Assembly (NCBI GenBank): GCA_017548505.1
Contig: JAFYZX010000005.1
Span: 385-64,384, forward strand
Direction of reading: 5' to 3'
Source: Bacteroidales bacterium
Lineage (GTDB): Bacteria; Bacteroidota; Bacteroidia; Bacteroidales; UBA932
Length of the DNA stretch: 64,000 nt
Each line of letters opens with the position of its first letter. Positions within the stretch are counted from its first letter, which is position 1. The notes below the pieces were generated by a model. It was given only the letters and a program-made list of their open reading frames with translations. It was not told the DNA's origin and did not search any database. Position numbers and translations under genes: made by a program. This document shows, one piece after another, positions 24,348-41,771 of this stretch.

Positions 24348-24410
24348 GGAACTGTCTTGAGAGGCACTTATAATATTGGAACAATATTTGATAGTCCTTA
24401 AGACAGTTCC
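24348..24410. repeat. long hairpin with inner palindrome upstream of the 24448 gene
   Basis: GGAACTGTCTT (24348-24358) pairs with AAGACAGTTCC (24400-24410). The loop contains the palindrome AATATTGGAACAATATT (24372-24388). Confidence 0.75.
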
Positions 24411-24447
24411 GATTGTTATCGAATGTTTAACTTAAACGAAAATTGAA

Positions 24448-24963: not shown

Positions 24964-24986
24964 GAGGAACTATACGGTTCTTTGAA

Positions 24987-25027
24987 AAAGGGGATGATCA
25001 AGTTTTTGGTCATCCCTTTTGTTTTTT
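24987..25027 (+). terminator. rho-independent terminator after the 24448 gene
   Basis: AAAGGGGATGATCA-AGTTTT-TGGTCATCCCCTTT (14-bp stem with one G-T pair) followed by GTTTTTT. Confidence 0.85.
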
Positions 25028-25071
25028 CTAACTTTATATCGCGATATGAATAATTGTTAAAACCTTATAAT

Positions 25072-26463: not shown

Positions 26464-26467
26464 AGCA

Positions 26468-27277
26468 TTACTTAAGTTTCCTGAAATCTGCGGCAGGTTC
26501 TTGTATTTGGATCAAGGAATCTGCCGCAGGCTTTTTTAACAGGAATGTACGGGATTCCTTATTCAAAGTGTCTGAGATTATCAGTTTTTCAGCCACGTCA
26601 TATCTTGAGGGGCCGTGTCCGAAAATGAAAGTATAAGTTCCACTTCCATTACCCGCTTCTGCAAAATGCCAGGAGACAGTCTTTCCGTCTCCGTTGAAAA
26701 ACAGGGTGTCTGCCCCGCTTGCGAAAACTCCTGAAAGCGGCTCGGGTTCAGGGGTTCCCGGATCCGGTGGCAGGTTGATGTTCTTGCAGCCTTCCAGTAG
26801 AGAAGCCAGAAAGTACAGAATCATAAGCACCAGAAGGATGATAATCAGCCAGCTGAAAAAGCCTCTCTTCTTTTTCTGAGGAGCGGCAGCTTGCTGGTAT
26901 TTTGGCTGCTGCGCCTGCTGATAATTCTGCCGTGGTGGTTGCTGATAGCTTTGCTGTTGCTGGTAATTCTGCCGCGGTGGCTGCTGATATTGTGTTCCGG
27001 TTGCGGAAGCTTCTGGTTTCGGCTTAGGATTTTCCCAGGATGAAAGCACCACTTCTCCGGCGGTTTTTGATGCTCCCAAAAACTCTTCCTGATTACCCTC
27101 AAGGGTATTGGTTTGAGGGCTCTGGCGGACTGTCTGTTTGGGAGCGGCCGGTTTCTTGGGCTTTGCCGGAGCCGGCTTGCTGGCCGGTGCCTTTGCAAGT
27201 TCCTGTTTTGTTCCGCAGACAGAACAGAATTTGGCGTCATCGCTGAGCTGTGTTCCGCAATTTGTGCAGTATTTCAT
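26468..27277 (-). CDS. zinc-ribbon membrane protein with Pro/Lys- and Gln-rich linker, unknown function
   Basis: 269 aa. N-terminal CxxC..CxxC ribbon MKYCTNCGTQLSDDAKFCSVCGT, a PAPAKPKKPAAPK stretch, and the 14-aa repeat QQPPRQNYQQ.Q.Y twice. One TM (FFSWLIIILLVLMILYFLASLL) and a ~100-aa C-terminal domain. Last gene of the operon, 3 nt after the giant gene. Confidence 0.75.
   Translation of the reverse strand: MKYCTNCGTQLSDDAKFCSVCGTKQELAKAPASKPAPAKPKKPAAPKQTVRQSPQTNTLEGNQEEFLGASKTAGEVVLSSWENPKPKPEASATGTQYQQPPRQNYQQQQSYQQPPRQNYQQAQQPKYQQAAAPQKKKRGFFSWLIIILLVLMILYFLASLLEGCKNINLPPDPGTPEPEPLSGVFASGADTLFFNGDGKTVSWHFAEAGNGSGTYTFIFGHGPSRYDVAEKLIISDTLNKESRTFLLKKPAADSLIQIQEPAADFRKLK
26488..26537 (+). 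terminator. probable pepP terminator embedded in the 3' coding end of the convergent zinc-ribbon gene
   Basis: CTGCGGCAG...CTGCCGCAG (9-bp stem, 24-nt loop) followed by GCTTTTTT, 25-75 nt after the pepP stop. Confidence 0.6.
26922..26989. repeat. 42-nt in-frame tandem repeat inside the zinc-ribbon gene
   Basis: TAATTCTGCCGTGGTGGTTGCTGATA (26922-26947) and TAATTCTGCCGCGGTGGCTGCTGATA (26964-26989). They encode the duplicated QQPPRQNYQQ unit on the minus strand. Confidence 0.85.
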
Positions 27278-27280
27278 GGC

Positions 27281-30200: not shown

Positions 30201-31060
30201 GCTCCAATCATCTGAGGAGGATCTCCCACCACGAGAGTATCTCCAAAATCCTTATAGAGAAGCATCCGGAAGCGGCTGCGGTCCTTGTCGTCGTCATCAT
30301 TCTTCTGCTCTTTCTTCTGAGGTTCTTTCTTTGCCGGCTTTGCCTTCGGCTTCTTCTTTTTGCCGATAAGAGCCGCTCCGCCTATAACAGCTGCACCGCC
30401 ACCTATGATGTAAATCCACGGAATCTCTGTTCCTTCTTCTTCCTCACCTTCCTTATCCGAGGCAACGGTGGTCTTTTCCGTCAGCTGCCCGGGTCCGCGG
30501 TATTCATATAGATATTTCTGATATACTGCAATTTCGTGCGCTCCCGCCTGAAGCAATTTGCAGCTTACCATTATCAGCAGTTTGGAATCCCTGCCAGGAT
30601 TAATGTTCTCAGATGGAAAATGTTCGTAAACTCTGAAAACTTTGCCGTCTCCCCGGAAAAAGGCCTGAGAGTATGAAGATGTCATTGTTGCTCCAATCTG
30701 GTAAACGAGCTTACATGCTTTTAGAGCCTGAGGAGTAAGACCCGGGTCAAATGCCCTGTCGTACTGGAAAGTTACATTGTCCTCATCTCCAAAGCGTATC
30801 TTGGAAGGAGGATCCTGCCAGGTCATGGTAACTGTGCCGTCGTTTGTGCGTGCATAGTTCCTTCTGATGGTCCACAGCTGTTTCTTATCTCTCCCGCTTC
30901 CGTTATGGGAAATGCCATCGCTGTTTTCCTGAATCTCGGTCTTTACCAGCACCCAGTAGCCTTCTTCTGCAAATGCTGAGGAAACTGTCGCGATAAAGAT
31001 GAAAAGAAACAAGCACTGTCTAATCCATCCCAATCGCTGGGAAAAACTATGATGGTTCAT
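27281..31060 (-). CDS. giant (1259 aa) multi-domain membrane protein, no recognisable family
   Basis: Signal peptide (res 1-31), ~180-aa ectodomain, TM WIYIIGGGAAVIGGAALIG (215-233), then a poly-Lys/Asp stop-transfer region. A beta-rich region (263-640) is followed by a hydrophobic hairpin (748-812), a Lys-rich low-complexity stretch (820-915) and a ~345-aa helical C-terminal domain. I recognise no catalytic motif. Confidence 0.8.
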   Translation of the reverse strand: MNHHSFSQRLGWIRQCLFLFIFIATVSSAFAEEGYWVLVKTEIQENSDGISHNGSGRDKKQLWTIRRNYARTNDGTVTMTWQDPPSKIRFGDEDNVTFQYDRAFDPGLTPQALKACKLVYQIGATMTSSYSQAFFRGDGKVFRVYEHFPSENINPGRDSKLLIMVSCKLLQAGAHEIAVYQKYLYEYRGPGQLTEKTTVASDKEGEEEEGTEIPWIYIIGGGAAVIGGAALIGKKKKPKAKPAKKEPQKKEQKNDDDDKDRSRFRMLLYKDFGDTLVVGDPPQMIGARIEEINVYGEKINRPDLSAQISIFEEENCSISDSRMVGKYMSCNVVAKNAPPEGEEGKAKVRFVFNGHAGTLINHVVFKVVACPEIVIGEALTFEAGGGKTLFMEFGINNCTTEVLGVDVSMDKGGAKFFSAETLQDEKIPVKFRINVTECGKITEKEKENAIAGDAERYTCYVTVNLEGRKEPLKTTFDLYRMNLGVHMDIRALKAYLVDYDSTLENEILATNPKARKKWGESKVTFKLIAEDKKTGDIRSVLPDAEPVFTFEDMPEGNVLFRDKYGNDVPNPCALMNFKFVCKEVRSDNTVVGLIHSGGGGLLPPNRAKAKVTLKVTYNGKEYEDTDEVMIISQPFRDIADNREYNLALKDDEKKLNQLIDIRSKIGFDPRFSYLMPFYYKVHALIEGYDSRFGVYEPDYKKIKNVFDKYCSGQIGYYFVNDAAWTPEWTEADENFNAFVATFASMEKSIPVIGLRIALAYFTAGASELVLMPYSGVVKMKEYVDKGGDSAFKGFVVASVEVFFWEGVFYVGGKALKWARGTQVGQQVEAKAVAKAKEGWGKLKEGYKKIKDYVTKAKEGKDATKKIANSSSFSTKKIADKITDAGKKAGKTRKSSIAGANDAIRKTRMKGDAIFTKESKFAEECSKVARKDAQKIYDDFKKVMNNPNATPEEVRRATLALQGNKNAQNLLRNSPSDLLRANYNAQMQKIYDEVDPMTIKKLAKKLGVPEKDIQPFKGATGNAGDDLYLGKKIGADRDVTFQVRGKDGKWVDIQEDLMEEAYAEAFNEYHYGYMPADKQQAIKTLKKFDQATVHGELGKESYGKDLQNIIKKEFQTNKLYDPERVANTFEYKCKEWISQGKNCQNQAQQLYDMGMIEEAMHVRGYGDALIEEGIRQNVKQFKRILDPRITALNAKGVGKDYSILYEKIRILESIGNPPPKDILPTTLEEARLVLQDQYGCTIEQVVEECAGVIKEINEYL

Positions 31061-31071
31061 TGTAACCTGTT

Positions 31072-31842
31072 TTATTTCTTTACTTTAGGGCAACGGGACT
31101 TTATATAGTTGTACACAAAGTCAAAGTCTTTCTTAGGCACATATATCTGGTTGTGCTCAAAAGGCTCGTGAACCTTGATGCACTTTAGCCATCTGAGAGG
31201 CTTTATCCTGCGTACAACCTTGAAAGTGGAGGTTGAAACCTGCTTGGTGGTAGAAAGGATTCCGACACCGGTAGTGGTGAGATTTCCCGTTGACGCACCA
31301 GCCATGGCAGTTATCCAACCCAGAATCTGGGCTTTCTTGAATTGCTTTGGCACCTGGATATGGCGGATCTGTTCTTCATCCATTTCAAACAGAACGCAAT
31401 AGCTGCCGCCATAAATAAAAGTAAGTACAATCAGGCTGATAATTGTGAGGCCTGCCATAATAGCCATGGCTATCAAAAGAGCCTCTCCCATTCCTGTCAA
31501 TTGATCCCAGTCTCCGTGTATGATAGCCGGTATTACTCCGAATACCAGCATCATACCCGCCAGAATAAAGAAGAAAATCTTGAGTACGGTAAACAGGATT
31601 ACTGGATTTGTAAGCATATTGAGCTTGTAAACCCAGCGGTACTTGCCATCGTTGCAGAGCTTGATTTCGGCACCCTGGTAGTTTTTATCTGCGGCTTCTC
31701 CTTCCGCATGCTTTTCTTCCGAATAGTGTTCCTTCTCTACGGGGATGTTCTCTTTTGCGGAGCCTTCCACCGGATTTCCGCAACTGGTGCAGAATTTTGC
31801 GTTGTCCGGCAACTGTGTTCCGCAGTTTGTGCAAAATTTCAT
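31072..31842 (-). CDS. zinc-ribbon polytopic membrane protein, unknown function
   Basis: 256 aa. MKFCTNCGTQLPDNAKFCTSCGN ribbon and a CNDGKYRWVYKLNMLTNP motif, followed by 3-4 hydrophobic helices and a basic C-terminal domain. It lies 11 nt upstream of the giant gene. Confidence 0.75.
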   Translation of the reverse strand: MKFCTNCGTQLPDNAKFCTSCGNPVEGSAKENIPVEKEHYSEEKHAEGEAADKNYQGAEIKLCNDGKYRWVYKLNMLTNPVILFTVLKIFFFILAGMMLVFGVIPAIIHGDWDQLTGMGEALLIAMAIMAGLTIISLIVLTFIYGGSYCVLFEMDEEQIRHIQVPKQFKKAQILGWITAMAGASTGNLTTTGVGILSTTKQVSTSTFKVVRRIKPLRWLKCIKVHEPFEHNQIYVPKKDFDFVYNYIKSRCPKVKK

Positions 31843-31864
31843 AGGACTATGTTTTTAATTATTT

Positions 31865-32071
31865 CTAGGAAAGGTCTATCCCGCAGCTGCGCAGGCCGAG
31901 CAATACAAAAATCAGCAAGGCGGCGGAAAGAACGAGGGTAATGACCATAAGAAGCCAGTTCTTTCTGTTTTTCCTCTGCGATAAAAGTCTGGCAATTAAG
32001 ACCAAAGACAAAACCAAGATTGCTACGACAATCCAGTTCTGAGTCTGGCTGAGTGCAAGAATTGTATTCAT
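31865..32071 (-). CDS. 68-aa two-TM membrane protein
   Basis: MNTILALSQTQNWIVVAILVLSLVLIARLL-SQRKNRKN-WLLMVITLVLSAALLIFVLLGL. Two hydrophobic helices are joined by a basic loop. The gene is wedged 8 nt and 22 nt from its neighbours. Confidence 0.55.
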   Translation of the reverse strand: MNTILALSQTQNWIVVAILVLSLVLIARLLSQRKNRKNWLLMVITLVLSAALLIFVLLGLRSCGIDLS

Positions 32072-32079
32072 GGCAGGCC

Positions 32080-33609
32080 CTAAAAATTGAAACCGATATC
32101 CTTTACCAGGCGGACGGCAAAGCCGGCAGCTTTTGAGTTAGAGGGATCATTATATACTCCTTTTAAAACTGAGGAAATAATCACAGCACCTCCCTCCGTG
32201 GAAGTCCAATAGAAGCCTTCTCCAAGACGATCAACATTCGTACCCATACGCCCTCCGGTAATAGGAAGGAAGACGGCGCCCTTAGGCTCCCAATCGGTTT
32301 TCCAATCGGATGAAGAAACTGTATTATCATTAAAGTTTGAGTGGGCTGAGTTCATCGCCGGGCTTGTCCAGGAGCCATCCGGGAGAAGGATAAGGCCCAT
32401 TATCCCATTTACAGTTGCAAAGCCATATTTTGTTGACGCATCGGCGCGGTGAGTCGTGATTTCCGACTCGGGGATGCCGAGCAAATAACCCCACTCCGCG
32501 CGTGACAGAGTTCGCCAACCGAAGCCGGAGGCATTGCCGCCGTTCGTGATTGCACTATTGCCCCATTCAGACCAGCTATAATCATTTTCATCATCGCTGA
32601 CGTTGTTTGGATTGTTTTGCGTTCCCCATCCCAAAAGATCCCGGTGATCGTCGATCTGCGAATTGCCGAAGCTGTCCCACTGGTTTTCGGCAAATTGCCA
32701 GGAACCCACGTACTGCAGGTTACCCTGAGAGAAATAGACCTTTTTCTCTTCCGAGACGGAGAACTTGCCGATGTATCTGGCGGTTTTCCACATGTGAGAA
32801 GCGTCATCAAGGCTCTTGAACTTGTAGAAAGTGCTAGGTGTGAGAGCACGAGTTTTTTCAAATATAGTATAATTATCTCCGTTGCATAGGTAAAAATAGT
32901 AATCCAACACAGTTCCCGGGCTGTCGATGTATCCTGAATAAACTACACCCTCGGCATCGGCAAACCCGGCAAGGGGACCGGTTGGGAGGGTATATTTAAT
33001 ACCATCATCCTGAATGCCTCTGACTTGCCGAGGCCTGACGTTGCTTACACGGAATGAATAATTCTTGAAGGTTGTTTGCAGGCCAGGAATGTGGAACTGG
33101 ACGGAATTCTCCGGGATGCTCAGGCTCAGGTTCAAAGTAATAGCCGTTCCGCTGACGGTGTATGGGACATTCTGCTGCTCCAGGTAATAGGTTGCCGGCC
33201 ATGCGTCGTCGGCAGTGACGAACTCAAGAATCTGCTTGTCGTTGAATGTAGTAAATTGCGGTGTAACATTGACCGGGAAATAGATGGCGTGGCAATACTT
33301 TCTGGCGGCGGCAAAATCACCCTCGGTAAAAGCGGCGCTCTGCGTTGCCTCCCATGTAGAAGCTCCAGCGTTGTATGTAAGAGTGAGATACTTGTTGTTT
33401 ATATCCTGAAACTTGACATAAATCTTATCTCCGCCGAGCCATACAGATTTGGCCTCCGCTTTGGTCTTTGGCGCATCGACGGTTACCTTGAAGGTAAAGT
33501 GGGCGGTCTCTTCCTTATCTGTTCCGTTGTCGTCAGGGGCCGGAAGATCATTCTTAGTGCAGGCGAAAAGCGCAGCGAACGCGCAAAGGAAAACAAATGC
33601 TTTTTTCAT
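32080..33609 (-). CDS. surface lipoprotein with C-terminal FISUMP/DUF1566-type (lectin-like) domain
   Basis: Lipobox FAALFACTKN when started at the ATG at 33609 (MKKAFVFLCAF). The C-terminal 200 aa carry GWRTLSRAEWGYLL, GAVFLPITGGR, FYWTSTE and AAGFAVRLVKD, resembling the Fibrobacter-succinogenes-major-paralogous/DUF1566 fold. First large gene of the operon. Confidence 0.7.
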   Translation of the reverse strand: MKKAFVFLCAFAALFACTKNDLPAPDDNGTDKEETAHFTFKVTVDAPKTKAEAKSVWLGGDKIYVKFQDINNKYLTLTYNAGASTWEATQSAAFTEGDFAAARKYCHAIYFPVNVTPQFTTFNDKQILEFVTADDAWPATYYLEQQNVPYTVSGTAITLNLSLSIPENSVQFHIPGLQTTFKNYSFRVSNVRPRQVRGIQDDGIKYTLPTGPLAGFADAEGVVYSGYIDSPGTVLDYYFYLCNGDNYTIFEKTRALTPSTFYKFKSLDDASHMWKTARYIGKFSVSEEKKVYFSQGNLQYVGSWQFAENQWDSFGNSQIDDHRDLLGWGTQNNPNNVSDDENDYSWSEWGNSAITNGGNASGFGWRTLSRAEWGYLLGIPESEITTHRADASTKYGFATVNGIMGLILLPDGSWTSPAMNSAHSNFNDNTVSSSDWKTDWEPKGAVFLPITGGRMGTNVDRLGEGFYWTSTEGGAVIISSVLKGVYNDPSNSKAAGFAVRLVKDIGFNF

Positions 33610-33625
33610 AATACAATCCTCCCGG

Positions 33626-33745
33626 TTAAATGTCTTCTTCATTCCACTTAGCTGGATTGGATACCTGTAACAAGGAAACAGCAGCCGTCAGTTCCACCAT
33701 TATGACAGAAGGTGCTGAATAGGTTTCTTTCATCATTTTATCCAT
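33626..33745 (-). CDS. candidate 39-aa sORF upstream of the operon
   Basis: Own translation: MDKMMKETYSAPSVIMVELTAAVSLLQVSNPAKWNEEDI. It lies between the predicted -7 box (33810-33817) and the lipoprotein ATG (33609). It is below the ORF-track size cut-off, and no homology was assessed. Confidence 0.3.
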   Translation of the reverse strand: MDKMMKETYSAPSVIMVELTAAVSLLQVSNPAKWNEEDI

Positions 33746-33817: not shown

Positions 33818-33944
33818 CCTTTTTTATCCTATTCCGGCTAGCTTATTAAGGGATTTTGAAAATTCAAGCTCGGGGGGGGTGCGGTGGAACTCATCGAGAA
33901 GATAGGCACTCAGAACTGGCTATTGCTACAACTGTAAGTATATG

Positions 33945-34015
33945 GGCCGGCAAAGCCGGAGCGTTGTAATCGTTGATGATGCGTGGCTATCGTGTATTCA
34001 GTATCGTATTCTAGA
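33945..34015. repeat. island repeat right-arm copy with alternative GC hairpin junction
   Basis: GGCCGGCAAAGCCGG (also present at 41621-41635) is joined directly to AGCGTTGTAATCGTTGATGATGCGTGGCTATCGTGTATTCAGTATCGTATTC. Confidence 0.8.
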
Positions 34016-34020
34016 AGGTT

Positions 34021-34084
34021 GATTTTTGTAAAATATCGCATTTTAAAATGCTGATTTTTGTAAAATATCGCGTTTTGAGAAAAT
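34021..34084. repeat. 32-bp tandem duplication containing a 14-bp perfect palindrome
   Basis: GATTTTTGTAAAATATCGC occurs at 34021 and again at 34053. GCATTTTAAAATGC (34038-34051) is a perfect palindrome. TATCGCGTTTTGAG (34065-34078) is shared with unit D (41485-41498). Confidence 0.85.
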
Positions 34085-34320
34085 TTCAGTACCTCTACGC
34101 CGTAAATAGAACAATGCTATGATAGACAAGAGAACATTGGTTTCTACAGATGATTATACAGCCTTTATCTGGAATGAGGGGAAGAATCTCACCGTGTTTT
34201 ATTATAACACCAGAGACAAGAAGGAAGCCGCTTAGAGCCCCAATAAATAATGGTTGTCACCAATAAGGGCAACCTCAAAATGTTGACCAAAAAGTGACCA
34301 ATTTTGGGGGATAAAAAGGA

Positions 34321-34368
34321 AAAGACTTTGTATGATGCTTGGAAATGAGCAACTTACAAAGTCTTTTT
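34321..34368 (+). terminator. hairpin + T-tract inside repeat unit A
   Basis: AAAGACTTTGTA-22 nt-TACAAAGTCTTT followed by TT, then the tRNA-end core. It is preceded by an A-tract, so it could act in both directions. Confidence 0.55.
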
Positions 34369-34382
34369 GTACCCGGAGCCGG
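34363..34382. repeat. direct duplicate of the tRNA-Leu 3' end plus flank (att-core-like), copy 1
   Basis: CTTTTTGTACCCGGAGCCGG is identical over 20 nt to 41681-41700, which is the 3'-terminal 14 nt of tRNA-Leu plus 6 nt of downstream flank, in the same orientation. Confidence 0.9.
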
Positions 34383-34496
34383 AGCGTTGGAATCGTTGAT
34401 AATGCGTGGCTATCGTGTATTCATTGGTGGCTGTATAAAGGAAAGCTCATCAAATGCTTAACTTTTCGGGTGATGTATTCACGATAATCCCCGAGA

Positions 34497-34556
34497 AACG
34501 CGGTCAAACGCGGTCAAGTTTTGGAAACGTGGTCAATTGTGGTCAAGCTAGAGGGG
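34497..34556. repeat. iteron block: four GGTCAA(A/G) repeats
   Basis: AACGCGGTCAAACGCGGTCAAG...AACGTGGTCAATTGTGGTCAAGCTAGAGGGGG. Same motif family as at 35324, 37984, 37995, 41509 and 41520. Confidence 0.8.
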
Positions 34557-34665
34557 GCGGACAAATCTCAAGATTGTACCATAAAAAAGAATCTTGATAG
34601 GGGCGGAATGGATGGGGTTTTATCTAAAAAACATCTATTTTTGTTCAAACAATGAAATATTATTG

Positions 34666-35304
34666 ATGAAACGGAAAGCTTACATTTTTTTAGCAATAAT
34701 ATTCACCAGTTTAAGTTTTATTGTCATCTACCCGAGACTGAGGCCAGGCAATTTGAAATCAATAGCACAGAAAGTAAGACTCAGCGATGACATTAAATAT
34801 GCAATTCTGGTAGATTATGGGAGGCATTCCGGAAGGAACCGCTTCTTTGTCTGGGACTTTGAAAAGGACAAGGTTGTGCTCTCATCTCCTTGTGCTCATG
34901 GTTATGGTGGTGGCAGCACAGCCCGCCATTGTGTTTTCAGCAACAAGATTGGAAGCCATTGTTCTTCTGAAGGAAGATATACATTAGAGAAAGAGAGACA
35001 GATGTACCAGTTTTCAGGAAGGAAATGCTTTCCGGTAAAAGGATTGGATAAGGGTATAAATGATAATGCTGAAAAGAGAGCTATACTGATCCATCCGGCC
35101 AGAATGCCATCTTTTCCCATTTATCCGTTTCTTTTCCCAGTGCGAGTTATAAATCTGGGTTTCTGGACTATTCGTCCTGCAAGTGAGGGTTGTATCACTA
35201 TTCCTGGAAAGCAGTATGAGGAATTGAGAAAAATTGTCGCAGCCGCGGGTGTCAAACACGTTATGCTCTATGTTTATGATTCTTCCAGTCTGAATGATTC
35301 TTAA
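34666..35304 (+). CDS. L,D-transpeptidase catalytic-domain family protein (YkuD_2-like), membrane anchored
   Basis: N-terminal TM KRKAYIFLAIIFTSLSFIVIY. Motifs CAHGYGGGS, ILIHPA and the catalytic-Cys context PASEGCITIP. Start set to the ATG at 34666. Confidence 0.7.
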   Translation: MKRKAYIFLAIIFTSLSFIVIYPRLRPGNLKSIAQKVRLSDDIKYAILVDYGRHSGRNRFFVWDFEKDKVVLSSPCAHGYGGGSTARHCVFSNKIGSHCSSEGRYTLEKERQMYQFSGRKCFPVKGLDKGINDNAEKRAILIHPARMPSFPIYPFLFPVRVINLGFWTIRPASEGCITIPGKQYEELRKIVAAAGVKHVMLYVYDSSSLNDS

Positions 35305-35311
35305 GGGGAGA

Positions 35312-35370
35312 TTCTGAAAAATGTGGTCAAATTTGGGGGATAATCGCTATCTATCGTTTATTCATTGTGC
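35312..35370. repeat. island repeat unit E (short form)
   Basis: TTCTGAAAAATGTGGTCAAATTTGGGGGATAA, followed by TCGCTATCTATCGTTTATTCATTG, which resembles the GGCTATCGTGTATTCATTGG end of the right arm. Confidence 0.8.
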
Positions 35371-35371
35371 A

Positions 35372-36265
35372 TTACTTTGCCAGAAATTCCGAAGGTGTGC
35401 TGCCTGTGACCTTCTTGAACAATCTGCTGAAATGGTGGGGATATTCAAAGCCCAGCAGGTCGGCCACTTCGCCAACACTTAGCCCTTTCATCAGGAGGTT
35501 CTTGGCCTGATCAATTACGAAACTGTGGATGTAGCCGATGGCAGTGCCGCCGGTGCCCTGATGGATCATATCACCAAAGTAACGGGCTGAATAAGCTAGT
35601 TCTCCGGCACAATATGAAACGGTAGGAAGGCCCTTTTCATGTTGCAGCCCTTGGGTGAAATAATCGACAAGCAAGCGGTGGAAGCGTTTGAGGATATCGC
35701 TTTCGCCACTTTCTTTCTGTGAAAGTTGGCGTAGATAGATTCGTTGGCAATATTCCAGAATCAGTTGGAGGTAGCTTGTAAGGATATTCCTGAGCGCAGG
35801 TGAATCCGGATTCTCCTGCATTTCTTTGCGCATAGTGACCAGAAGAAGCGAGAAACGCTCATATTCGGAGGATGTCATCCGCAACCAGTCCGTATCGAAG
35901 TAGGAGAAAAAATGGTATCCTTCCATTTTCCCTTCGAGCGGAGATCCTTTCAACAGTTCCGGGGACCAGAGCAAGGCCCAACCATTGATGTACAGGGGCG
36001 TTCCGTTGTCTTCTCCTCCGCCTATCTGTCCCGGCGCTACGGCAATGATGGAGCTATCTCCTACGATAATGGATTTGGTGCCATAGGACAGATATTTAGG
36101 GAATTGCTGCTGAATGAAGAGACCGTAAACCCCATAATTATTGAGACTGTTCCGGAACGGAGAAACTTCATCATAACTGATGAGCGCCAGCTGAGGATGC
36201 AGGATAGGAGCGCCTACATATTCCGCATAGACATTAGGATTAGAAACCTTCAGAATCTTCTTCAT
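35372..36265 (-). CDS. AraC-family transcriptional regulator
   Basis: C-terminal double HTH (SYCAGELAYSARYFGDMI...VGEVADLLGFEYPHHFSRLFKKVTGSTPSEF). Start at the ATG at 36265 (MKKILKVSNPN), because the TATCTTTG -7 box (36273-36280) lies inside the longer ORF. Confidence 0.85.
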   Translation of the reverse strand: MKKILKVSNPNVYAEYVGAPILHPQLALISYDEVSPFRNSLNNYGVYGLFIQQQFPKYLSYGTKSIIVGDSSIIAVAPGQIGGGEDNGTPLYINGWALLWSPELLKGSPLEGKMEGYHFFSYFDTDWLRMTSSEYERFSLLLVTMRKEMQENPDSPALRNILTSYLQLILEYCQRIYLRQLSQKESGESDILKRFHRLLVDYFTQGLQHEKGLPTVSYCAGELAYSARYFGDMIHQGTGGTAIGYIHSFVIDQAKNLLMKGLSVGEVADLLGFEYPHHFSRLFKKVTGSTPSEFLAK

Positions 36266-36272
36266 AACCCTG

Positions 36273-36280
36273 CAAAGATA
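36273..36280 (-). promoter_or_regulatory. -7 promoter box for AraC regulator 1
   Basis: The minus strand reads TATCTTTG, only 7 nt upstream of the ATG at 36265. Confidence 0.55.
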
Positions 36281-36344
36281 GCAAAATCTGCGAAATTGGT
36301 ATAAAGTCAGCGAATATTGACACAAAAAGCTGCGGGCCTCGCCG

Positions 36345-36352
36345 TACCTTTG
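36345..36352 (+). promoter_or_regulatory. -7 promoter box for the cyclophilin-like/hydrolase pair
   Basis: TACCTTTG, 19 nt upstream of the ATG at 36372. Divergent from the AraC promoter. Confidence 0.55.
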
Positions 36353-36371
36353 CATCGTAAAACCAATAGAT

Positions 36372-36887
36372 ATGAAACGAATGACTACATTGCTTCTTGC
36401 CTGCCTCGCTTCTTTGGCACTTTTCTCCTGCGAAAAGATTGAGCCGGTTGAGATTCCGGAGCCTCAGAAAGGAGAAGAGAAGCAGCCGGAGGACAATAAA
36501 TACAACTCCAACAATAACGACCAAACAACCATAATGGTTATGAACATAACTGCCGGCGGAAAGACCATTACCGCCACACTGTCCAATAACGAGACCGCCA
36601 AAGAACTGGCCAAGAAGCTGAAAGCTGGCGCTGTTACCGTCCAGATGAAGGCCAATGGATTCGAGCACTACGGGCCGCTGGGTTTTACGCTCACCAACCA
36701 CAACGAGCAGATTGCGGCCGCCTCCGGAGATATTATGCTCTACAACAGCAATAATATCTGTGTGTTCTATGGCAACAACAGCTGGTACTACACCCCGCTC
36801 GGAAAGGTGGACGGTCTCTCTGCAGACGAGCTAAAGACATTCTTCGGCACAGGCGACATCTCCGTCACATATTCACTGAAACAATAA
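36372..36887 (+). CDS. cyclophilin-like-fold lipoprotein, unknown function
   Basis: 171 aa, lipobox LALFSCEK. ITAGGKTITATLSNNETAKEL...GDIMLYNSNNICVFYG resembles the cyclophilin-like-fold family often found next to reductases in gut anaerobes. Assignment from memory. Confidence 0.5.
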   Translation: MKRMTTLLLACLASLALFSCEKIEPVEIPEPQKGEEKQPEDNKYNSNNNDQTTIMVMNITAGGKTITATLSNNETAKELAKKLKAGAVTVQMKANGFEHYGPLGFTLTNHNEQIAAASGDIMLYNSNNICVFYGNNSWYYTPLGKVDGLSADELKTFFGTGDISVTYSLKQ

Positions 36888-36893
36888 CACGTT

Positions 36894-37934
36894 ATGCAAA
36901 AGATACTCATCACCCTTGCGGGCATCGCCCTGCTGGCATCCTGCTGCAACAACAAAAACACAAATGATATGAACCTCACACAGGAATGGGACAAGACGTT
37001 CCCAAAATCCGACCTGGTGGAGCATTCCAAGGTCACTTTCCACAACCACTACGGCATTACTCTGGTTGCTGATATGTATATACCCAAAGGCGCAGAGGGC
37101 AAGCTGCCCGCTATAGCGGTCTCCGGTCCTTTCGGAGCCGTTAAGGAGCAGACCAGCGGTATCTATGCCCAGCATTTGGCAGAACGGGGCTTTCTCACCA
37201 TTGCTTTTGACCCGTCCTATACTGGCGAGAGTGGCGGAGAACCCCGCCGGATGGCTTCCCCGGACATCAATACCGAGGACTTTCTGGCTGCTGTGGATTT
37301 CCTTTCCGTGCAGGAGAATGTGGATTCTGAGCGTATTGGCATTATCGGTATATGCGGTTGGGGCGGAATGGCCATCAATGCAGCGGCTCTTGACCCCCGC
37401 ATCAAAGCAACTCTCACTTCCACTATGTACGATATGTCTCGCGTGGCACGTGAAGGATATTTCGGTAGTGCCGATAATGTCGAGGCTCGCGACGCACAGC
37501 GCGCAGCCTGGGCTGCCCAGCGAACGGAAGATTATCGTACTGGTAATTACAAGCGCGCCGGCGGTGTTGTTGATCCACTTCCGGAGGATGCTCCTTGGTT
37601 CGTGAAGGACTACTACGATTACTACAAGACCGAACGCGGCTATCACCCTCGCAGCGGCAACTCCAATGACGGATGGAACATCACGGGCACAATGTCCTTC
37701 CTGAACCAGCCTCTGCTGGATATGGCCGGTGAAATCAAGACTCCTGTGCTTCTGATTCACGGTGAGAAGGCCCACAGCCGCTATTTCAGCGAAGGTGCTT
37801 TTGCTAAACTTAAGGGAGACAATAAGGAACTCCTCATCATCCCTGGCGCTGTACATACGGACCTGTATGACGATAAGGCAGGCGTAATTCCTTACGACAA
37901 GATAGAATCATTCTTCAAGGAAAACCTGAAATAA
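36894..37934 (+). CDS. alpha/beta hydrolase, dienelactone-hydrolase-like (Cys nucleophile)
   Basis: 346 aa, lipobox LLASCCNN. The nucleophile elbow is G-I-C-G-W-G (GxCxG rather than GxSxG), as in dienelactone hydrolases. Late His in PGAVHTDLY. Confidence 0.7.
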   Translation: MQKILITLAGIALLASCCNNKNTNDMNLTQEWDKTFPKSDLVEHSKVTFHNHYGITLVADMYIPKGAEGKLPAIAVSGPFGAVKEQTSGIYAQHLAERGFLTIAFDPSYTGESGGEPRRMASPDINTEDFLAAVDFLSVQENVDSERIGIIGICGWGGMAINAAALDPRIKATLTSTMYDMSRVAREGYFGSADNVEARDAQRAAWAAQRTEDYRTGNYKRAGGVVDPLPEDAPWFVKDYYDYYKTERGYHPRSGNSNDGWNITGTMSFLNQPLLDMAGEIKTPVLLIHGEKAHSRYFSEGAFAKLKGDNKELLIIPGAVHTDLYDDKAGVIPYDKIESFFKENLK

Positions 37935-38021
37935 GTTGAAAGGCATTTTATAATGGTTGTCACCAATAAGGGCATTCTGAAAATGTGGTCAAAATGTGGT
38001 CAAATTTGGGGGATAAAAAGG

Positions 38022-38069
38022 AAAAGACTTTGTATGGTGCTTGAAAATGAGCAACTTACAAAGTCTTTT
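38022..38069 (+). terminator. hairpin + T-tract inside repeat unit B (after the hydrolase gene; convergent with SDR)
   Basis: Same 12-bp stem as unit A, with an A-tract upstream and a T-tract downstream. It sits between convergent genes. Confidence 0.6.
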
Positions 38070-38082
38070 TGTACCCGGAGCC
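38064..38082. repeat. direct duplicate of the tRNA-Leu 3' end plus flank (att-core-like), copy 2
   Basis: CTTTTTGTACCCGGAGCCG is identical over 19 nt to 41681-41699, in the same orientation. Confidence 0.9.
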
Positions 38083-38108
38083 GTAGCGGTTAAACCGATT
38101 GTCACCGT

Positions 38109-38957
38109 TTATCCCTGCAGTTTGAACATTCCTGTGCGGATGCTGGCGATGACACCGCCGTCGATGAGCAGGTCGGTGCCATTGATGAAGGTGGCGTGCT
38201 CGCCAAGCAGGAACGAAGCGGCATCGGCAATCTCATCGCTGGTGGCCACGCGGCGTGCTGCAGAGGCATCGATCATGGCCTGATAGCCGTCACCGTTGGC
38301 ATTGAACTCATCGTAGGCCAGGGGAGTGACGATTATGCCCGGCGAGATGGTGTTGATGCGGGCACGACGCTCGCGCCATGTGGTAGTGGCTGCCCGCTGA
38401 GCCTGCAGGTGGTTTACGCGCTTGGCAATCATATAGGCAAACCCGCTATTCTGCATTGCTACATTCTTGATGATAGGCAGTTCTGAAAGCTGCTCGGTGG
38501 TGGCGTTCACAATCTGAAGCTCATCCTCGTTGGGGATAGGGTACATGTAAGCGGCCTGACTCGAAATTATAAGTCCTGCCCCGCCCTCAGCCATCACTTT
38601 ACCGAAAGCATCAACAGCATAGCCCGTGCCCACCATATCGAGGTTCACGATATGTTCTGGTGAGGCCTGATTGGGCGATGCGCCTGCCGTGTCGATGAAG
38701 TACATCACCGGGCCGAGTTCCGCCGCCTTCTTGGCAAAGGCCTCGATGCTCTCCTTTTCCAGGGCGTTCACCACGCATGTCTCCACATCGTAGCCGCTAC
38801 GGCGAAAATCATCGCTGACGCGCTCCAGTGCCTTTTCGCTGATGTCGCCCAGCAGAATCTTCTTGCCTGCCGCAATGCGACGTACGATGGCTGTTCCCAT
38901 ACTGCCGGCACCCAGCAGTGCCACTACCTGTTTCTTCTCGTTTCTGTCGAAAATCAT
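38109..38957 (-). CDS. SDR-family oxidoreductase
   Basis: 282 aa. Rossmann motif VALLGAGSMGTAI and a C-terminal SDR-like segment (INTISPGII.TP). Confidence 0.75.
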   Translation of the reverse strand: MIFDRNEKKQVVALLGAGSMGTAIVRRIAAGKKILLGDISEKALERVSDDFRRSGYDVETCVVNALEKESIEAFAKKAAELGPVMYFIDTAGASPNQASPEHIVNLDMVGTGYAVDAFGKVMAEGGAGLIISSQAAYMYPIPNEDELQIVNATTEQLSELPIIKNVAMQNSGFAYMIAKRVNHLQAQRAATTTWRERRARINTISPGIIVTPLAYDEFNANGDGYQAMIDASAARRVATSDEIADAASFLLGEHATFINGTDLLIDGGVIASIRTGMFKLQG

Positions 38958-38994
38958 AGTATCTGTCTTTTAAAGATGATAGGTTGTCAGTCTC

Positions 38995-39963
38995 TTAGTC
39001 CCAAATCTGATAGTCTCCCATCCAGGCTTTAATCTGGTCATAGGACATGGTGAAGTAGCGCTTCTCCTGATCTAGGGCCTCCATTCTGGCCATCTCTTCC
39101 GGAGTCAGCTCGAAATCGAAGACCTCGATGTTCTCCTGAATGTGCTTTGGGTTGGATGAGCCAGGAACCACGCTGAAGCCCTTCTGGATGTGCCAGCGGA
39201 TAATGGTCTGGACGGCGGACTTGCCGTGAGCGGTGGCAATCTCATTGATGACCGGGTCGCGAATCACTTCACCCTTGCTGTCACGGCCGCCAAGAGGGAA
39301 CCAGCACTCGATCTTGATGTTGTATTTCTTACACATCTCCTGCCAATGCTTGCGCTGGGCGTATGGATGGCATTCGATCTGGAATATCTGTGGCTTGACA
39401 GTAGCTGTTTCCACGATGGAGTTGAACAGTTCGTCGTTGAAATCAAAATTACTGATGCCTATGGCACGTACTTTACCGTCAGCCTGCGCTTTCTCCATCT
39501 CTTTCCAGCCCTCGATATAGTTTCCCAGCGGCTGGTGGAAGTAAATCAGGTCTATGTAATCCAGGCCCAGGCGCTCCAGCATCTTGTCTATCTGCTGCTG
39601 GATAACCTTTGGATCGTACTCATTAGGCCAAAGCTTGGAGGTAATCCAGATCTCTTCACGGGGAATGCCGCTGTCCTTGACAGCCTGTCCTACACTGCGC
39701 TCATTGCCGTAGGCATGGGCGGTATCAATATGGCGGTAGCCGGCTTTCAGTGCTGCAAGTACGGAGTTGTAGGTAGTTACTCCAGCAGGGATGGAATAGA
39801 CGCCGAGTCCGAACTGAGGAATGACAACGCCGTTGTTAAGTTTAAGAGTGGTCTGGTTCATGGGGTAATCTGTTTTAGTTATTGTCTCTTGTTCTTTTAT
39901 CTGAGCAGCGCAACTAACGCTCAGCGCCAGAGCAGCAATGGTAAGAAGGTGTCTCATAATCAT
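38995..39963 (-). CDS. aldo/keto reductase (long form carries a lipoprotein-type signal peptide)
   Basis: AKR signatures GYRHIDTAHAYGNE, WITSKLW, IGISNF, PGSSNPKHI. The longest ORF starts MIMRHLLTIAALALSVSCAAQ and overlaps the upstream stop (ATGA). A conventional AKR start, MNQTTLKLNNG, exists at 39861. Confidence 0.85.
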   Translation of the reverse strand: MIMRHLLTIAALALSVSCAAQIKEQETITKTDYPMNQTTLKLNNGVVIPQFGLGVYSIPAGVTTYNSVLAALKAGYRHIDTAHAYGNERSVGQAVKDSGIPREEIWITSKLWPNEYDPKVIQQQIDKMLERLGLDYIDLIYFHQPLGNYIEGWKEMEKAQADGKVRAIGISNFDFNDELFNSIVETATVKPQIFQIECHPYAQRKHWQEMCKKYNIKIECWFPLGGRDSKGEVIRDPVINEIATAHGKSAVQTIIRWHIQKGFSVVPGSSNPKHIQENIEVFDFELTPEEMARMEALDQEKRYFTMSYDQIKAWMGDYQIWD

Positions 39964-40487
39964 TCAATGGTTTTAATGAGTTTTGCAGGATTTCCGCCAA
40001 CAATCGTGTTGGGAGCAACATCCTTGGTAACAACAGCACCGGCAGCCACTACGGCGTTCTCGCCAACTGTTACGCCGGGCAGGATGGTAGCACCGGCTCC
40101 AATCCAGGCGTTGCGGCAGATGTGAACAGGCTTGCACACCAGCAGCTGGTGGTCATGCAGGTCGTGGTTGTTGGAGATGAGCTGCACGTTGGCTGCAATC
40201 ATGGCTCCGTCATCGATGGTAATGCCGCCGCGGGACATCATCAGACAACCGCCCATTACAAGGACATTCTCTCCGATAGTAACTTCGCTGGCACATACTA
40301 GGTTGAGCGGAGGGAGCACCCGGCTGCCTTCACCTATTTTGCCGACAAATAGTTCCTTCACCAGGTTATCGTATTCTTCTGTATAGGGCATCGTGTGGTT
40401 GATGCCAAAGACGAGTTTCACATCGCGCAATCCCTTCTCAAACTCTTCGGGACCGGACTTGCGGGGGTCAACAATGAATCCTTCCAT
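39960..40487 (-). CDS. sugar O-acetyltransferase (left-handed beta-helix, maltose/galactoside acetyltransferase-like)
   Basis: 175 aa with hexapeptide repeats IGAGATILPGVTVGENAVVAAGAVV and a Mac-type N-terminal segment. Confidence 0.8.
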   Translation of the reverse strand: MEGFIVDPRKSGPEEFEKGLRDVKLVFGINHTMPYTEEYDNLVKELFVGKIGEGSRVLPPLNLVCASEVTIGENVLVMGGCLMMSRGGITIDDGAMIAANVQLISNNHDLHDHQLLVCKPVHICRNAWIGAGATILPGVTVGENAVVAAGAVVTKDVAPNTIVGGNPAKLIKTIE

Positions 40488-40589
40488 TTTCTTGTGTATT
40501 TATTTTCTAGTACAAAGGTACATGGGTTCTATCCTTTCAGCCTTACTGTCATTTCGGAAAGATTTGACCAAATTTCCGTTTTGAATGAT

Positions 40590-40597
40590 TATCTTTG
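40590..40597 (+). promoter_or_regulatory. -7 promoter box for AraC regulator 2
   Basis: TATCTTTG, 5 nt upstream of the ATG at 40603. Confidence 0.55.
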
Positions 40598-40602
40598 CAT
40601 CT

Positions 40603-41421
40603 ATGGAAGATTACCTCTTTTTCAATACGCTTCAGGACCAGCGAAATCTGGCTGATTATCACAAGGATTACCATATCCATCTGCTTTGTCATGGAGGAGA
40701 GATGTCCTTTTCCATGGGGGCAAAATGCCATCTGGTTAGGGAAGGCGATTTGCTGATCTGGCAGATGACTACAGATTTTGACGAGATTACCTGTTCGGAA
40801 GACTTCAATGCCGATGTGCTTCTGGTGTCCGGACACTTCCTGAGTCTCTACAACCCCGAGCAAATCTGGGCCACCAAAGCCTACATCTATATCAAAAACA
40901 ATCCTGTTTTCCATTTGGAAGATGCCGAGAGGACGTTAGTCGAGACCGACTTCCGTGCTTTCCGCTTGAGAATCAGTACAGAGGTGCGCTTGTTTGAAGA
41001 GGAAATCATCGGCGAAATGCTCCGCATCTTCCTCTATGACCTTTGGAATGTTTATTCGCAAGAGATAGAGAAACACCAGACCGAGGACATCACCTCCAGT
41101 CATTTCCTGCGCGTCCTGCTTCTTGTGCAGGAACACTGCATCCGTGAGAGAGAAGTGGCTTGGTACGCCGACAAACTGAACCTGGCCCCCAAGTATCTCT
41201 CGGAGGTTTGCAAGGACATTTCCAGCAAACCGGCCTCTGTATGGATACAGCACTACACAGCTCACGAATTGACCAAACTGCTTTCCGACAAAAGCCTCAC
41301 GCTCACCGACATCTCCGACCGGATGGGCTTCTCATCCCAGGCCGTTCTGACCCGCTACCTCAAGCGCACACTAGGTATGAATCCATCAGAGTTTCGAAGA
41401 AAGAATCAAACGGCCAAGTAA
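40603..41421 (+). CDS. AraC-family transcriptional regulator
   Basis: C-terminal HTH pair (YADKLNLAPKYLSEVCKD...LTDISDRMGFSSQAVLTRYLKRTLGMNPSEFRR). Start at the ATG at 40603 (MEDYLFFN), because the TATCTTTG -7 box at 40590-40597 lies within the longer ORF. Confidence 0.85.
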   Translation: MEDYLFFNTLQDQRNLADYHKDYHIHLLCHGGEMSFSMGAKCHLVREGDLLIWQMTTDFDEITCSEDFNADVLLVSGHFLSLYNPEQIWATKAYIYIKNNPVFHLEDAERTLVETDFRAFRLRISTEVRLFEEEIIGEMLRIFLYDLWNVYSQEIEKHQTEDITSSHFLRVLLLVQEHCIREREVAWYADKLNLAPKYLSEVCKDISSKPASVWIQHYTAHELTKLLSDKSLTLTDISDRMGFSSQAVLTRYLKRTLGMNPSEFRRKNQTAK

Positions 41422-41441
41422 ATTACCTGTTTATCTTCACT

Positions 41442-41540
41442 GTGCCCAGAGCCGGAGCGTTGGAATCGTTGATAAAGCGTGGCTATCGCGTTTTGAGCAA
41501 CTAAAAATGTGGTCAAATTGTGGTCAATTTTGGGGGATTG
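41442..41540. repeat. island repeat unit D (degenerate core + right arm + iteron block)
   Basis: GTGCCCAGAGCCGG (12/14 match to GTACCCGGAGCCGG), then AGCGTTGGAATCGTTGATAAAGCGTGGCTATCGCGTTTTGAG, then AAAAATGTGGTCAAATTGTGGTCAATTTTGGGGGAT. Confidence 0.85.
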
Positions 41541-41576
41541 ACTCACGAGTAACGCTTAACAAGAGGACGATAATAA

Positions 41577-41635
41577 GGCGCTTCAGCGCCCGGCACGGAG
41601 TGCCGCAATGCCCCTAGAGGGGCCGGCAAAGCCGG
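41577..41635. repeat. run of four consecutive GC-rich mini-hairpins
   Basis: GGCGC-TTCA-GCGCC, CGGCAC-GGA-GTGCCG, GCCCCT-AG-AGGGGC, CCGGC-AAA-GCCGG, packed back to back within 59 nt between the iteron block and the tRNA-Leu terminator. Confidence 0.8.
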
Positions 41636-41660
41636 GGGTGAAAAAGTTTAGGTACAAGAA

Positions 41661-41687
41661 AAGGACTGCGGTTAGCAGTCCTTTTTG
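41661..41687 (-). terminator. tRNA-Leu terminator (bidirectional hairpin)
   Basis: AAGGACTGC-GGTTA-GCAGTCCTT lies immediately 3' of the tRNA. It is flanked by T-rich tracts on both strands. Confidence 0.7.
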
Positions 41688-41771
41688 TACCCGGAGCCGG
41701 GATCGAACCGGCACAGGTTTTACCCCACTGGTGTTTGAGACCAGCGCGTCTACCAATTCCGCCATCCGGGC
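41688..41771 (-). tRNA. tRNA-Leu (anticodon CAA)
   Basis: The reverse complement reads GCCCGGATGGCGGAATTGGTAGACGCGCTGGTCTCAAACACCAGTGGGGTAAAACCTGTGCCGGTTCGATCCCGGCTCCGGGTA. Acceptor GCCCGGA/TCCGGGT, anticodon stem CTGGT/ACCAG with loop CTCAAAC, long variable arm, T-arm GCCGG-TTCGATC-CCGGC. CCA is not encoded. Confidence 0.92.

Follow-up and report, generated by a model that had tools for sequence, protein, structure and literature searches.

A patchwork of at least five small integrase-less units beside tRNA-Leu(CAA) in a Bacteroidales bacterium, probably formed by serial integration and decay

Introduction

What built an island of accessory genes that contains repeated copies of a tRNA 3' end and no gene for an integrase? 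This question is raised by a 64,000-nt stretch of DNA from an uncultured gut or rumen Bacteroidales bacterium (GenBank assembly GCA_017548505.1, contig JAFYZX010000005.1; hereafter the window), in which a 7.7-kb island (33944-41700) lies beside a tRNA-Leu(CAA) gene. An earlier, sequence-only reading had used three direct copies of the tRNA-Leu end to delimit two modules of 3.7 and 3.6 kb, which it regarded as accreted cargo dependent on an integrase supplied in trans. In this study, we found that the island was a patchwork of at least five units instead of two modules. It appears probable (roughly 0.6) that these units result from serial site-specific integration of one family of small elements downstream of the tRNA gene, followed by decay to remnants resembling cis-mobilizable elements (CIMEs). 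Thus, the first observation was confirmed, and its interpretation was partly supported.

Results

Copies of the tRNA-Leu 3' end

Because the tRNA-Leu(CAA) gene was placed at 41687-41771, the repeated 20-mer CTTTTTGTACCCGGAGCCGG consists of the tRNA 3' end and 6 nt of flank (41681-41686), in agreement with the sequence-only reading. The last 14 nt of the tRNA (41687-41700) are the core copied in the island.

41687-41771, minus strand: tRNA-Leu(CAA) gene (ARAGORN; Rfam RF00005, 54.5 bits)
41681-41700, plus strand: 20-mer, copy 1, tRNA 3' end and flank (20/20)
38065-38084, plus strand: 20-mer, copy 2 (19/20, final base T)
34363-34382, plus strand: 20-mer, copy 3 (20/20)

The threefold occurrence in direct orientation, as originally noticed, compares with an expectation of 0.02 copies in the 64-kb window (mean of 100 shuffles, none of which reached three). 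Both outer positions had been given correctly; the middle copy lies at 38065-38084 and not at 38064-38082. No further copy of the 20-mer or the arms described below was present in the window outside 33.9-41.7 kb, and with Rfam (30-45 kb, E threshold 1), the tRNA alone was found. The repeats at 34363 and 38065 extended to 108-130 nt at about 90% identity, and additional junction repeats occurred beyond or within the two original intervals (33944-34003, 35304-35367 and 41441-41538).

Anatomy of the junctions

Junctions are described here on the tRNA strand, which is the reverse complement of the window. The full set comprised a left arm of about 45 nt, a core copying the tRNA 3' end and an R arm of about 125 nt, the last containing a terminator hairpin in place of the tRNA's own and two 8-mers TTGACCAC 11 nt apart. 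The core (CCGGCTCCGGGTAC) starts with CCGGCT and is preceded by the left arm (...CGATAGCCACGC-N5-TCAACGATTCCAACGCT). The hairpin of the R arm (AAAAAGACTTTGTA...TACAAAGTCTTTT) folds at about -19 kcal/mol (z about -8) and is followed by a T-rich run, the 8-mer pair in the form ATCCCCCAAATTTGACCAC-N3-TTGACCAC and a short inverted repeat. This hairpin was assessed by RNA folding, since a simple terminator scan misses it because of its 22-nt loop.

The left arm (...CGATAGCCACGCATTATCAACGATTCCAACGCT) was found in three copies, at 33960, 34383 and 41456, versus none expected, with a remnant at 35339-35367. Within the window, the 8-mers (TTGACCAC/TTGACCGC) were confined to the island, in same-strand pairs or quartets with a spacing of 10-11 nt (34500-34546, four copies; 37985-38003; 41509-41527; and a degenerate pair at 34283-34312). 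All cores abutting a left arm began with CCGGCT and then went on as CCGGGTAC, CTGGGCAC or TTGCCGGCCC, which is what would be expected from recombination between non-identical att sites. At 34247-34426, an R arm, a core and a left arm followed each other as an attP-like join of two neighbouring units. A 16-nt direct repeat, GGGCCGGCAAAGCCGG, brackets the whole 7.66-kb island, and homology ceases on either side of it.

Units of the island

Two units contained arms only (U1, 164 nt; U5, 403 nt), and the others carried one, three and four genes. The original 3.7-kb interval turned out to be the YkuD_2 unit plus the AraC/cyclophilin-like/hydrolase unit, and the 3.6-kb interval was composed of the four-gene unit, the 164-nt cargo-less unit and roughly 65 nt of flank belonging to the tRNA itself; the fifth unit (33960-34362) is located to the left of the point where these intervals had begun. 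Proceeding outward from the tRNA, the features are as follows.

41644-41692, minus strand: 'N' terminator hairpin right after the tRNA (GGACTGC-TAACC-GCAGTCC, extended by GGTAC/GTACC; fold -25.6 kcal/mol, z -7.2)
41620-41635, plus strand: second copy of the 16-nt direct repeat GGGCCGGCAAAGCCGG, probably marking where the island ends proximally (two exact copies in the window versus none expected)
41456-41619, minus strand: U1, cargo-less mini-unit with four GC-rich stem-loops, paired 8-mers with an ATCCCCC motif (41509-41538) and a left arm (41456-41499) (repeat analysis)
41441-41455, plus strand: variant core, TGTGCCCAGAGCCGG (tRNA strand: CCGGCTCTGGGCAC), directly adjoining the left arm of U1 (repeat analysis)
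38085-41440: U2, with AraC, hexapeptide acetyltransferase, aldo/keto reductase and SDR genes and without an R arm (Pfam)
37950-38064, minus strand: U3 R arm at the U2/U3 junction, with hairpin (38022-38069), T-rich tract, ATCCCCCAAATTTGACCAC-N3-TTGACCAC (37985-38014) and inverted repeat (37950-37975) (fold -19 kcal/mol, z -7.5; covariation)
35339-37949: U3 cargo, with alpha/beta hydrolase, cyclophilin-like and AraC genes, and a left-arm remnant at 35339-35367 (Pfam; repeat analysis)
35304-35341, minus strand: remnant of the U3/U4 junction, one 8-mer with the ATCCCCC motif, hairpin and core gone (repeat analysis)
34383-35303: U4, with the YkuD_2 gene, four 8-mers TTGACCRC spaced by 10 nt (34500-34546) and, at 34383-34426, a left arm (Pfam; repeat analysis)
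34247-34362, minus strand: U5 R arm at the U4/U5 junction, with hairpin (34320-34367), degenerate 8-mer pair (34283-34312) and inverted repeat (34247-34275) (fold -19.4 kcal/mol, z -8.6)
34140-34232, plus strand: gene remnant in U5, 31 codons (tblastn E 3.7e-7)
33960-34071: distal end of U5, where a left arm (33960-34003) is accompanied by a 32-nt unit repeated 2.2 times in tandem (34002-34071) (repeat analysis)
33944-33959, plus strand: first copy of the 16-nt direct repeat GGGCCGGCAAAGCCGG, at which the island ends distally and chromosome follows (two exact copies in the window versus none expected)

The genes of U2 stop 19 and 24 nt short of the flanking cores, and U5 (33960-34362) contains no intact gene. 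When compared with the arm that follows the tRNA in a related locus (L092; related loci are designated by L numbers), the U3 R arm was 98.8% identical over 83 nt and the U5 R arm 94.3% identical over 123 nt. The variant core at 41441-41455 has two mismatches to the tRNA end of this genome, and its final 11 nt (GCTCTGGGCAC) are the same as those that end tRNA-Leu(CAA) in two more distant loci (L137 and L139). We considered this core as a footprint of a donor lineage and dropped the idea, as two transitions would explain the match equally well.

Two other repeat structures were observed at the ends of the island. Four successive short GC-rich stem-loops at 41578-41635 (GGCGCTTCAGCGCC, CGGCACGGAGTGCCG, GCCCCTAGAGGGGC and CCGGCAAAGCCGG) lie between the U1 8-mer pair and the tRNA terminator, and the final one is the 16-nt direct repeat. 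Beside the U5 left arm, the 32-nt tandem unit is TATCGCATTCTAAAAGGCTGATTTTTGTAAAA; it could represent iterons or a promoter remnant of a parent island.

The same locus in relatives

The island has tRNA-Leu, OsmC and MiaB as neighbours on one side and a 520-aa protein on the other. Searching with the neighbouring MiaB protein yielded relatives at graded distances (79-94% MiaB identity), in which different arrangements were found beside the tRNA:

L089, L091, L093, L095, L096: nearly empty, with N terminator, about 120 nt of S41 peptidase remnants and then a large downstream gene
L092, L094, L098, L099, L101, L102, L104: R arm, then an intact S41 peptidase gene
L088, L097: 'T' module (two genes of unknown function), then GGGTAC, R arm and YkuD_2 unit
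L090: Bro-N/HTH module at the tRNA

This variety of content at one tRNA supported the proposal that the DNA between the repeats is accessory. Among GTDB species representatives searched via MiaB, the best was 67% identical and none had the arms.

A complete tRNA-Leu was directly followed by the R arm in L092, L098 and L103, which represent three species-level lineages of the clade. The YkuD_2 unit of L088/L097 was 90% identical to window positions 34616-35333 and stood in another array context with its own arm; here the arm before the YkuD_2 gene is the intact form of the one left as a remnant at the U3/U4 junction. T modules of 969, 1128, 1623 and 1641 nt had both ends in common and were placed precisely after ...GGGTAC and before AAAAAG, GGGTAC being repeated, and L092 offered the matching unoccupied site. 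None of the modules at the tRNA in these relatives contained an integrase. Taken together, these comparisons establish the locus as a recurrent target of precise insertion, at which the YkuD_2 unit is a separate unit and deletions are frequent.

Among strains with the same MiaB protein, the S41 peptidase gene beside tRNA-Leu ranged from intact through internally deleted to a vestige of about 120 nt (L089 12046-12270, L088 14430-14500, L090 14530-14740 and L092 12105-13031), and no trace of it was seen in the window. We dropped the possibility that it is a mobile cassette; it is more likely an ancestral neighbour, because the 'empty' relatives retain its remnants. Contig breaks at the tRNA were likewise dropped as signs of population polymorphism, as such contigs end within multi-copy tRNA sequence. 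Metagenome contigs of the clade often stop inside the tRNA-Leu gene, as seen at the ends of L105 and L144, which is an assembly break.

The R arm beyond the clade and its association with ~9-kb islands

A scan of 241 million metagenome records with the 8-mer motif returned 21 matches, in 15 of which the hairpin and motif came directly after a whole or partial 3' end of tRNA-Leu (CAA or UAA):

L110, L125: R arm after complete tRNA-Leu(CAA)
L107, and L115, L122, L126 (tRNA with group I intron): R arm after complete tRNA-Leu(UAA)
L108, L109, L111, L112, L114, L117, L118, L119, L123: R arm after partial tRNA-Leu ends of 6-17 nt, in arrays

In an alignment of 20 arms, hairpin pairing was kept by compensatory changes in 7 of the 16 pairs, and the motif TCCCCAAA-TTGryCAC-N3-TTGryCAC was nearly invariant. 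Neither the 8-mer motif nor the R junction, left arm or a 389-aa island protein had a match when IMG/VR was scanned, and blastn searches of PLSDB and INPHARED with the R arm were negative as well.

Islands of about 9 kb followed the arm after tRNA-Leu(UAA) in L115/L122/L126 and, with a covaried stem, after a different tRNA-Leu(CAA) in L137/L139/L145. They encode a two-domain protein (389-841 aa), an AAA_25 helicase/primase-like protein and a WYL-like protein (384 aa). Directly downstream of tRNA-Leu(CAA), they occupy the following positions:

L137: 2168-11300
L139: 1441-11305
L145: about 5200-11700

The gene remnant of U5 (34140-34232) encodes 31 residues with 68% identity to the C-terminus of the arm-adjacent protein of these islands (tblastn E 3.7e-7). 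Thus, U5 is what is left of such an island after internal deletion, with both ends retained.

Several side observations were made in these loci. A weak prohead-protease (Peptidase_S78) match was found nearby in L145. The tRNA-Leu(UAA) of some Bacteroidales contains a group I intron that splits its anticodon loop (L122 876-1081, also L115 and L126; JGI metagenomes; RF00028, 57.7 bits), and a 183-aa open reading frame (ORF) just upstream of the intron-bearing tRNA in L115 might encode a homing endonuclease. At 9090-9180 of L119 (reverse complement), the hairpin and 8-mers occur a second time, right behind the stop codon of a protein-coding gene and with no tRNA core in front; this would be either a junction whose core was lost or a sign that the terminator can be used generally.

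Candidates for a recombinase

One related array contained an integrase-like gene. In L119, about 165 nt separate a partial tRNA-Leu(UAA) core and R arm from a gene for a 462-aa tyrosine-integrase-like protein (Phage_int_SAM_5 match at threshold, weak Phage_integrase match). In the ~9-kb islands, the conserved 384-aa protein looks like a WYL-type regulator, a PDB sequence search with it being empty, and no conjugation genes were seen. An AlphaFold2 model of the 389-aa arm-adjacent protein showed two confident alpha/beta domains of about 100 residues each, for which Foldseek found nothing in the PDB at E <= 0.001; this protein was not recognisable as a recombinase and was dropped as a candidate. 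No integrase, excisionase, relaxase or transfer gene was found by Pfam among the eight cargo genes of the window's island, and no integrase, transposase or relaxase domain in the called genes of same-species contigs spanning 22-50 kb.

Cargo genes and the adjoining region

Pfam matches confirmed the earlier gene calls, except that the 'Cys-type hydrolase' proved to be an alpha/beta serine hydrolase (Peptidase_S15, DLH and PETase-like model matches).

40603-41421, plus strand: AraC regulator (U2)
39960-40487, minus strand: hexapeptide acetyltransferase (U2)
38995-39963, minus strand: aldo/keto reductase (U2)
38109-38957, minus strand: SDR (U2)
36894-37934, plus strand: alpha/beta hydrolase (U3)
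36381-36887, plus strand: cyclophilin-like protein (U3)
35372-36265/36355, minus strand: AraC regulator (U3)
34666-35304, plus strand: YkuD_2 L,D-transpeptidase (U4)

A PADLOC scan of the cargo genes detected no defence genes.

To the left of the island (22080-33642), the window contains paralogous gene sets made up of a protein of unknown function (about 1260-1290 aa), a zinc-ribbon protein (251-275 aa) and a 68-aa ORF, with a repeat at 27211-27277 and 31776-31842. The number of sets varies, with one in L089 and two in L091/L092, and the first large gene in the window is just 520 aa. This region is a second variable locus adjoining the island.

Discussion

We estimate a probability of about 0.6 that the island was formed by serial site-specific integration of one small-element family downstream of tRNA-Leu(CAA) with subsequent decay, giving CIME-like remnants. 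Small elements of this family would have integrated repeatedly at or near the tRNA-Leu 3' end through an attP made up of left arm, CCGGCT core, terminator hairpin and paired 8-mers, and each would have supplied a replacement terminator for the tRNA. Internal deletions would afterwards have stripped any recombination and replication genes that they had. At present, the att sites are kept and the recombinase is absent, and for the units to move again, an integrase would have to come from another part of the genome or from an incoming element. That the units depend on an integrase supplied in trans, as the sequence-only reading supposed, is a conjecture; that the island has decayed is evident from its junctions and gene remnant. 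We infer both that a tyrosine integrase made the junctions and the order of the integration events. The tRNA 3'-end target, short cores identical to this target, hybrid cores after CCGGCT and helically phased direct 8-mers on both arms all point to such an enzyme. The 8-mers lie one helical turn apart, with four more on the other arm of U4, and are putative arm-type sites of a tyrosine integrase or an accessory protein; they could instead be iterons for the helicase of the island.

A number of observations weigh against serial integration. No recombinase gene was found in the window, as had been stated before: neither ORFs of at least 150 aa (1-22 kb and 54-64 kb) nor the called genes mentioned above contained an integrase, transposase or relaxase domain. 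The integrase-like protein of L119 had no homologue in the window or any other fetched locus by tblastn, and no integrase was recognised in the ~9-kb arm-sharing islands by Pfam, PHROGs and NCBIfam, including every island gene of L137/L139. The junctions are irregular, with U2 lacking an R arm, one junction (35304-35367) having lost its core and several being degenerate, and outside the window's species the left arm was found only in L111, and partly. Seven metagenome contigs of the same species, with identical proteins, carry the same array, and none of them falls below 99.8% identity to the window; they are therefore uninformative on polymorphism or present mobility. Moreover, other Bacteroidales chromosomes carry the U2 operon (AraC, acetyltransferase and aldo/keto reductase genes, in some cases also SDR) at 77-79% DNA identity, at sites that have no tRNA, core or arm nearby, and one such region also has cyclophilin-like and hydrolase genes resembling those of U3. 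Thus, the cargo is ordinary AraC-regulated redox and hydrolase metabolism. Composition, which had been proposed as a check against the flanks, was weak evidence: GC content could not distinguish the island (0.485) from the window (0.487), with U4 and U5 more AT-rich, and the tetranucleotide distance of the island was the second highest of 49 equal-sized chunks. Finally, the tRNA-proximal N terminator flank was 97.7% identical over 131 nt to L089 and similar 'empty' loci. For this reason, the tRNA end may be unoccupied here and the island may sit at a secondary 16-nt site, between the GGGCCGGCAAAGCCGG repeats about 50 nt farther downstream; alternatively, the N flank may itself be element-borne.

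Other explanations account for part of these data. If the hairpin and 8-mers were simply the native flank of tRNA-Leu, the locus would be a hotspot of homologous recombination, its content being swapped via conserved flanks and the internal tRNA-end copies arising by local duplication or illegitimate recombination. The presence of the R arm directly after complete tRNA-Leu in L092, L098 and L103 and after tRNA-Leu(UAA) in others agrees with this, as do the conservation of both sides of the locus, the many visible deletions (e.g. the S41 peptidase remnants) and the L119 copy of hairpin and motif behind a protein gene without a tRNA core. However, a native flank would not be expected to show 85-90% identity behind two tRNA-Leu isoacceptors in different genera, nor to recur behind partial tRNA ends of 13-14 nt within arrays (L108, L111, L114, L119 and L123), and the helicase-bearing islands following the arm, the base-exact insertions at ...GGGTAC and the left arms adjoining the cores on the opposite side also speak against it. 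We regard this explanation as unlikely. A third explanation would be that the 20-mer is a chance match or a generic dispersed repeat of the repetitive extragenic palindromic (REP) type unrelated to tRNA, in favour of which one could cite only how short the repeat was when first noticed. This is refuted by three copies versus 0.02 expected, all within the island in the 64-kb window, by the 15 of 21 matches in 241 million metagenome records that lay at tRNA-Leu ends and by the lack of any match in IMG/VR, PLSDB or INPHARED. Copy counts, arms and tRNA-linked matches thus supported the original view that these are att-type junctions at the tRNA-Leu 3' end, neither chance similarities nor a genome-wide REP.

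The units could also belong to an active system similar to integrons, in which non-autonomous cassettes with an attachment module of about 190 nt are excised as circles and reinserted by a recombinase encoded elsewhere, possibly of an unrecognised type. Arms are better conserved than cargo (98.8% for the U3 arm against L092 versus about 88-90% for the adjoining OsmC gene), the cargo-less units of 164 and 403 nt keep both arms, genes sit tight against junctions (19-24 nt in U2), the YkuD_2 unit takes differing positions in arrays, T modules of four sizes have common ends, and the ~9-kb relatives also lack a recognisable integrase. On the other hand, no recombinase candidate was found, and neither a circular junction nor polymorphism within the species was seen among the nearly identical contigs; junctions are degenerate (41441 and 33944) or core-less (35304-35367), U5 is a deletion remnant that points to decay, and selection on the tRNA terminator would explain the high arm identity equally well. 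We consider such activity as doubtful as the native-flank hotspot. Its most specific form would be an undescribed Bacteroidales cassette system, whose ~190-nt module (left arm, tRNA-Leu 3' core, terminator and TTGACCAC pairs) is shuttled between tRNA-Leu(CAA) and tRNA-Leu(UAA) ends by a recombinase that modules never carry, and this appears slightly less probable again. Since the ~9-kb helicase-bearing members have no recognisable integrase, the enzyme could be host-resident or structurally novel.

If serial integration and decay are correct, the island would show clearly and in fine detail how islets of accessory genes are assembled at a tRNA gene in uncultured gut or rumen Bacteroidales and then whittled down to cargo and att sites. 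The attachment module of left arm, core, hairpin and 8-mers is searchable and would delimit integrase-less islets that are missed by gene-based finders of mobile elements. It also flags a set of tRNA-Leu-linked islands without a recognised recombinase.

Comparison with known systems

Integron cassettes and the pdif modules of Acinetobacter are small recombinase-less modules with structured recombination sites, moved by an enzyme encoded elsewhere. Beside the present array, there is no intI/attI platform or Pc, the neighbours being tRNA-Leu, OsmC and MiaB and the 520-aa protein. The junction hairpin covaries, but its loop and flanks are conserved in sequence and it behaves as a tRNA terminator; the cores are tRNA 3' ends with sequence-conserved arms rather than attC hairpins or XerC/D sites. 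Dispersed REP-like repeats would have tRNA-independent copies, whereas the window copies were restricted to the island and the metagenome matches lay at tRNA-Leu ends.

Successive integration at one tRNA is known from the tycheposon-built islands of Prochlorococcus (bioRxiv 10.1101/2020.12.28.424599). These resemble the present locus in that older elements are pushed outward, partial tRNA copies and degenerate remnants lie between or among the elements, and members with helicase/primase or cargo genes share attachment modules. However, tycheposons are cyanobacterial and have their own tyrosine recombinases, and we found no evidence of relatedness. Closer to home, NBU1 of Bacteroides and MTnPi4 of Prevotella intermedia integrate at the tRNA-Leu 3' end (PMC5704250, PMC4755523). 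They share with the island the order Bacteroidales, the target and a short core identical to the tRNA end (14 nt here), and integration at secondary sites is documented for NBU1. In contrast, NBU1 has the integrase IntN1, an excision region, an oriT and a relaxase, whereas Pfam detected no integrase, relaxase or mobilisation domain in the island genes (oriT was not searched), and no Phage_integrase domain, as would mark an IntN1-like enzyme, was present in the window ORFs and genes scanned.

The nearest likeness is to CIMEs, for which accretion followed by decay is a documented origin of such tandems (PMC5704250). Tandem accretion of this kind has been described in the ICESt1/ICESt3-related islands of Streptococcus thermophilus (Pavlovic 2004, Bellanger 2011, reviewed in PMC5704250). 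CIMEs are att-flanked units without integration or transfer genes; a newcomer integrates in a resident's att site, and composites can move jointly. In the present island, att-type direct repeats surround the units, as seen from the core repeats, the two-sided arms and the exact insertion point in relatives, and no integrase, excisionase, relaxase or transfer gene occurs within them according to Pfam. As regards descent from an autonomous integrative and conjugative element (ICE) or integrative and mobilizable element (IME), U5 holds a 31-codon remnant of a gene of islands that themselves show no integrase or conjugation genes, and one related array (L119) includes an integrase-bearing unit. 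The only parent type seen here is the ~9-kb helicase-bearing island without a recognisable integrase. In addition, the target in S. thermophilus, which belongs to another phylum, is fda rather than a tRNA-Leu 3' end, and the five units here are very small (0.16-3.4 kb), two of them cargo-less, with no ICE or IME partner in cis. By itself, the island suggests no new mechanism, as the accretion of elements at tRNA genes and their subsequent decay have been amply documented. The element family itself appears to be undescribed, in view of the PLSDB, INPHARED and IMG/VR searches.

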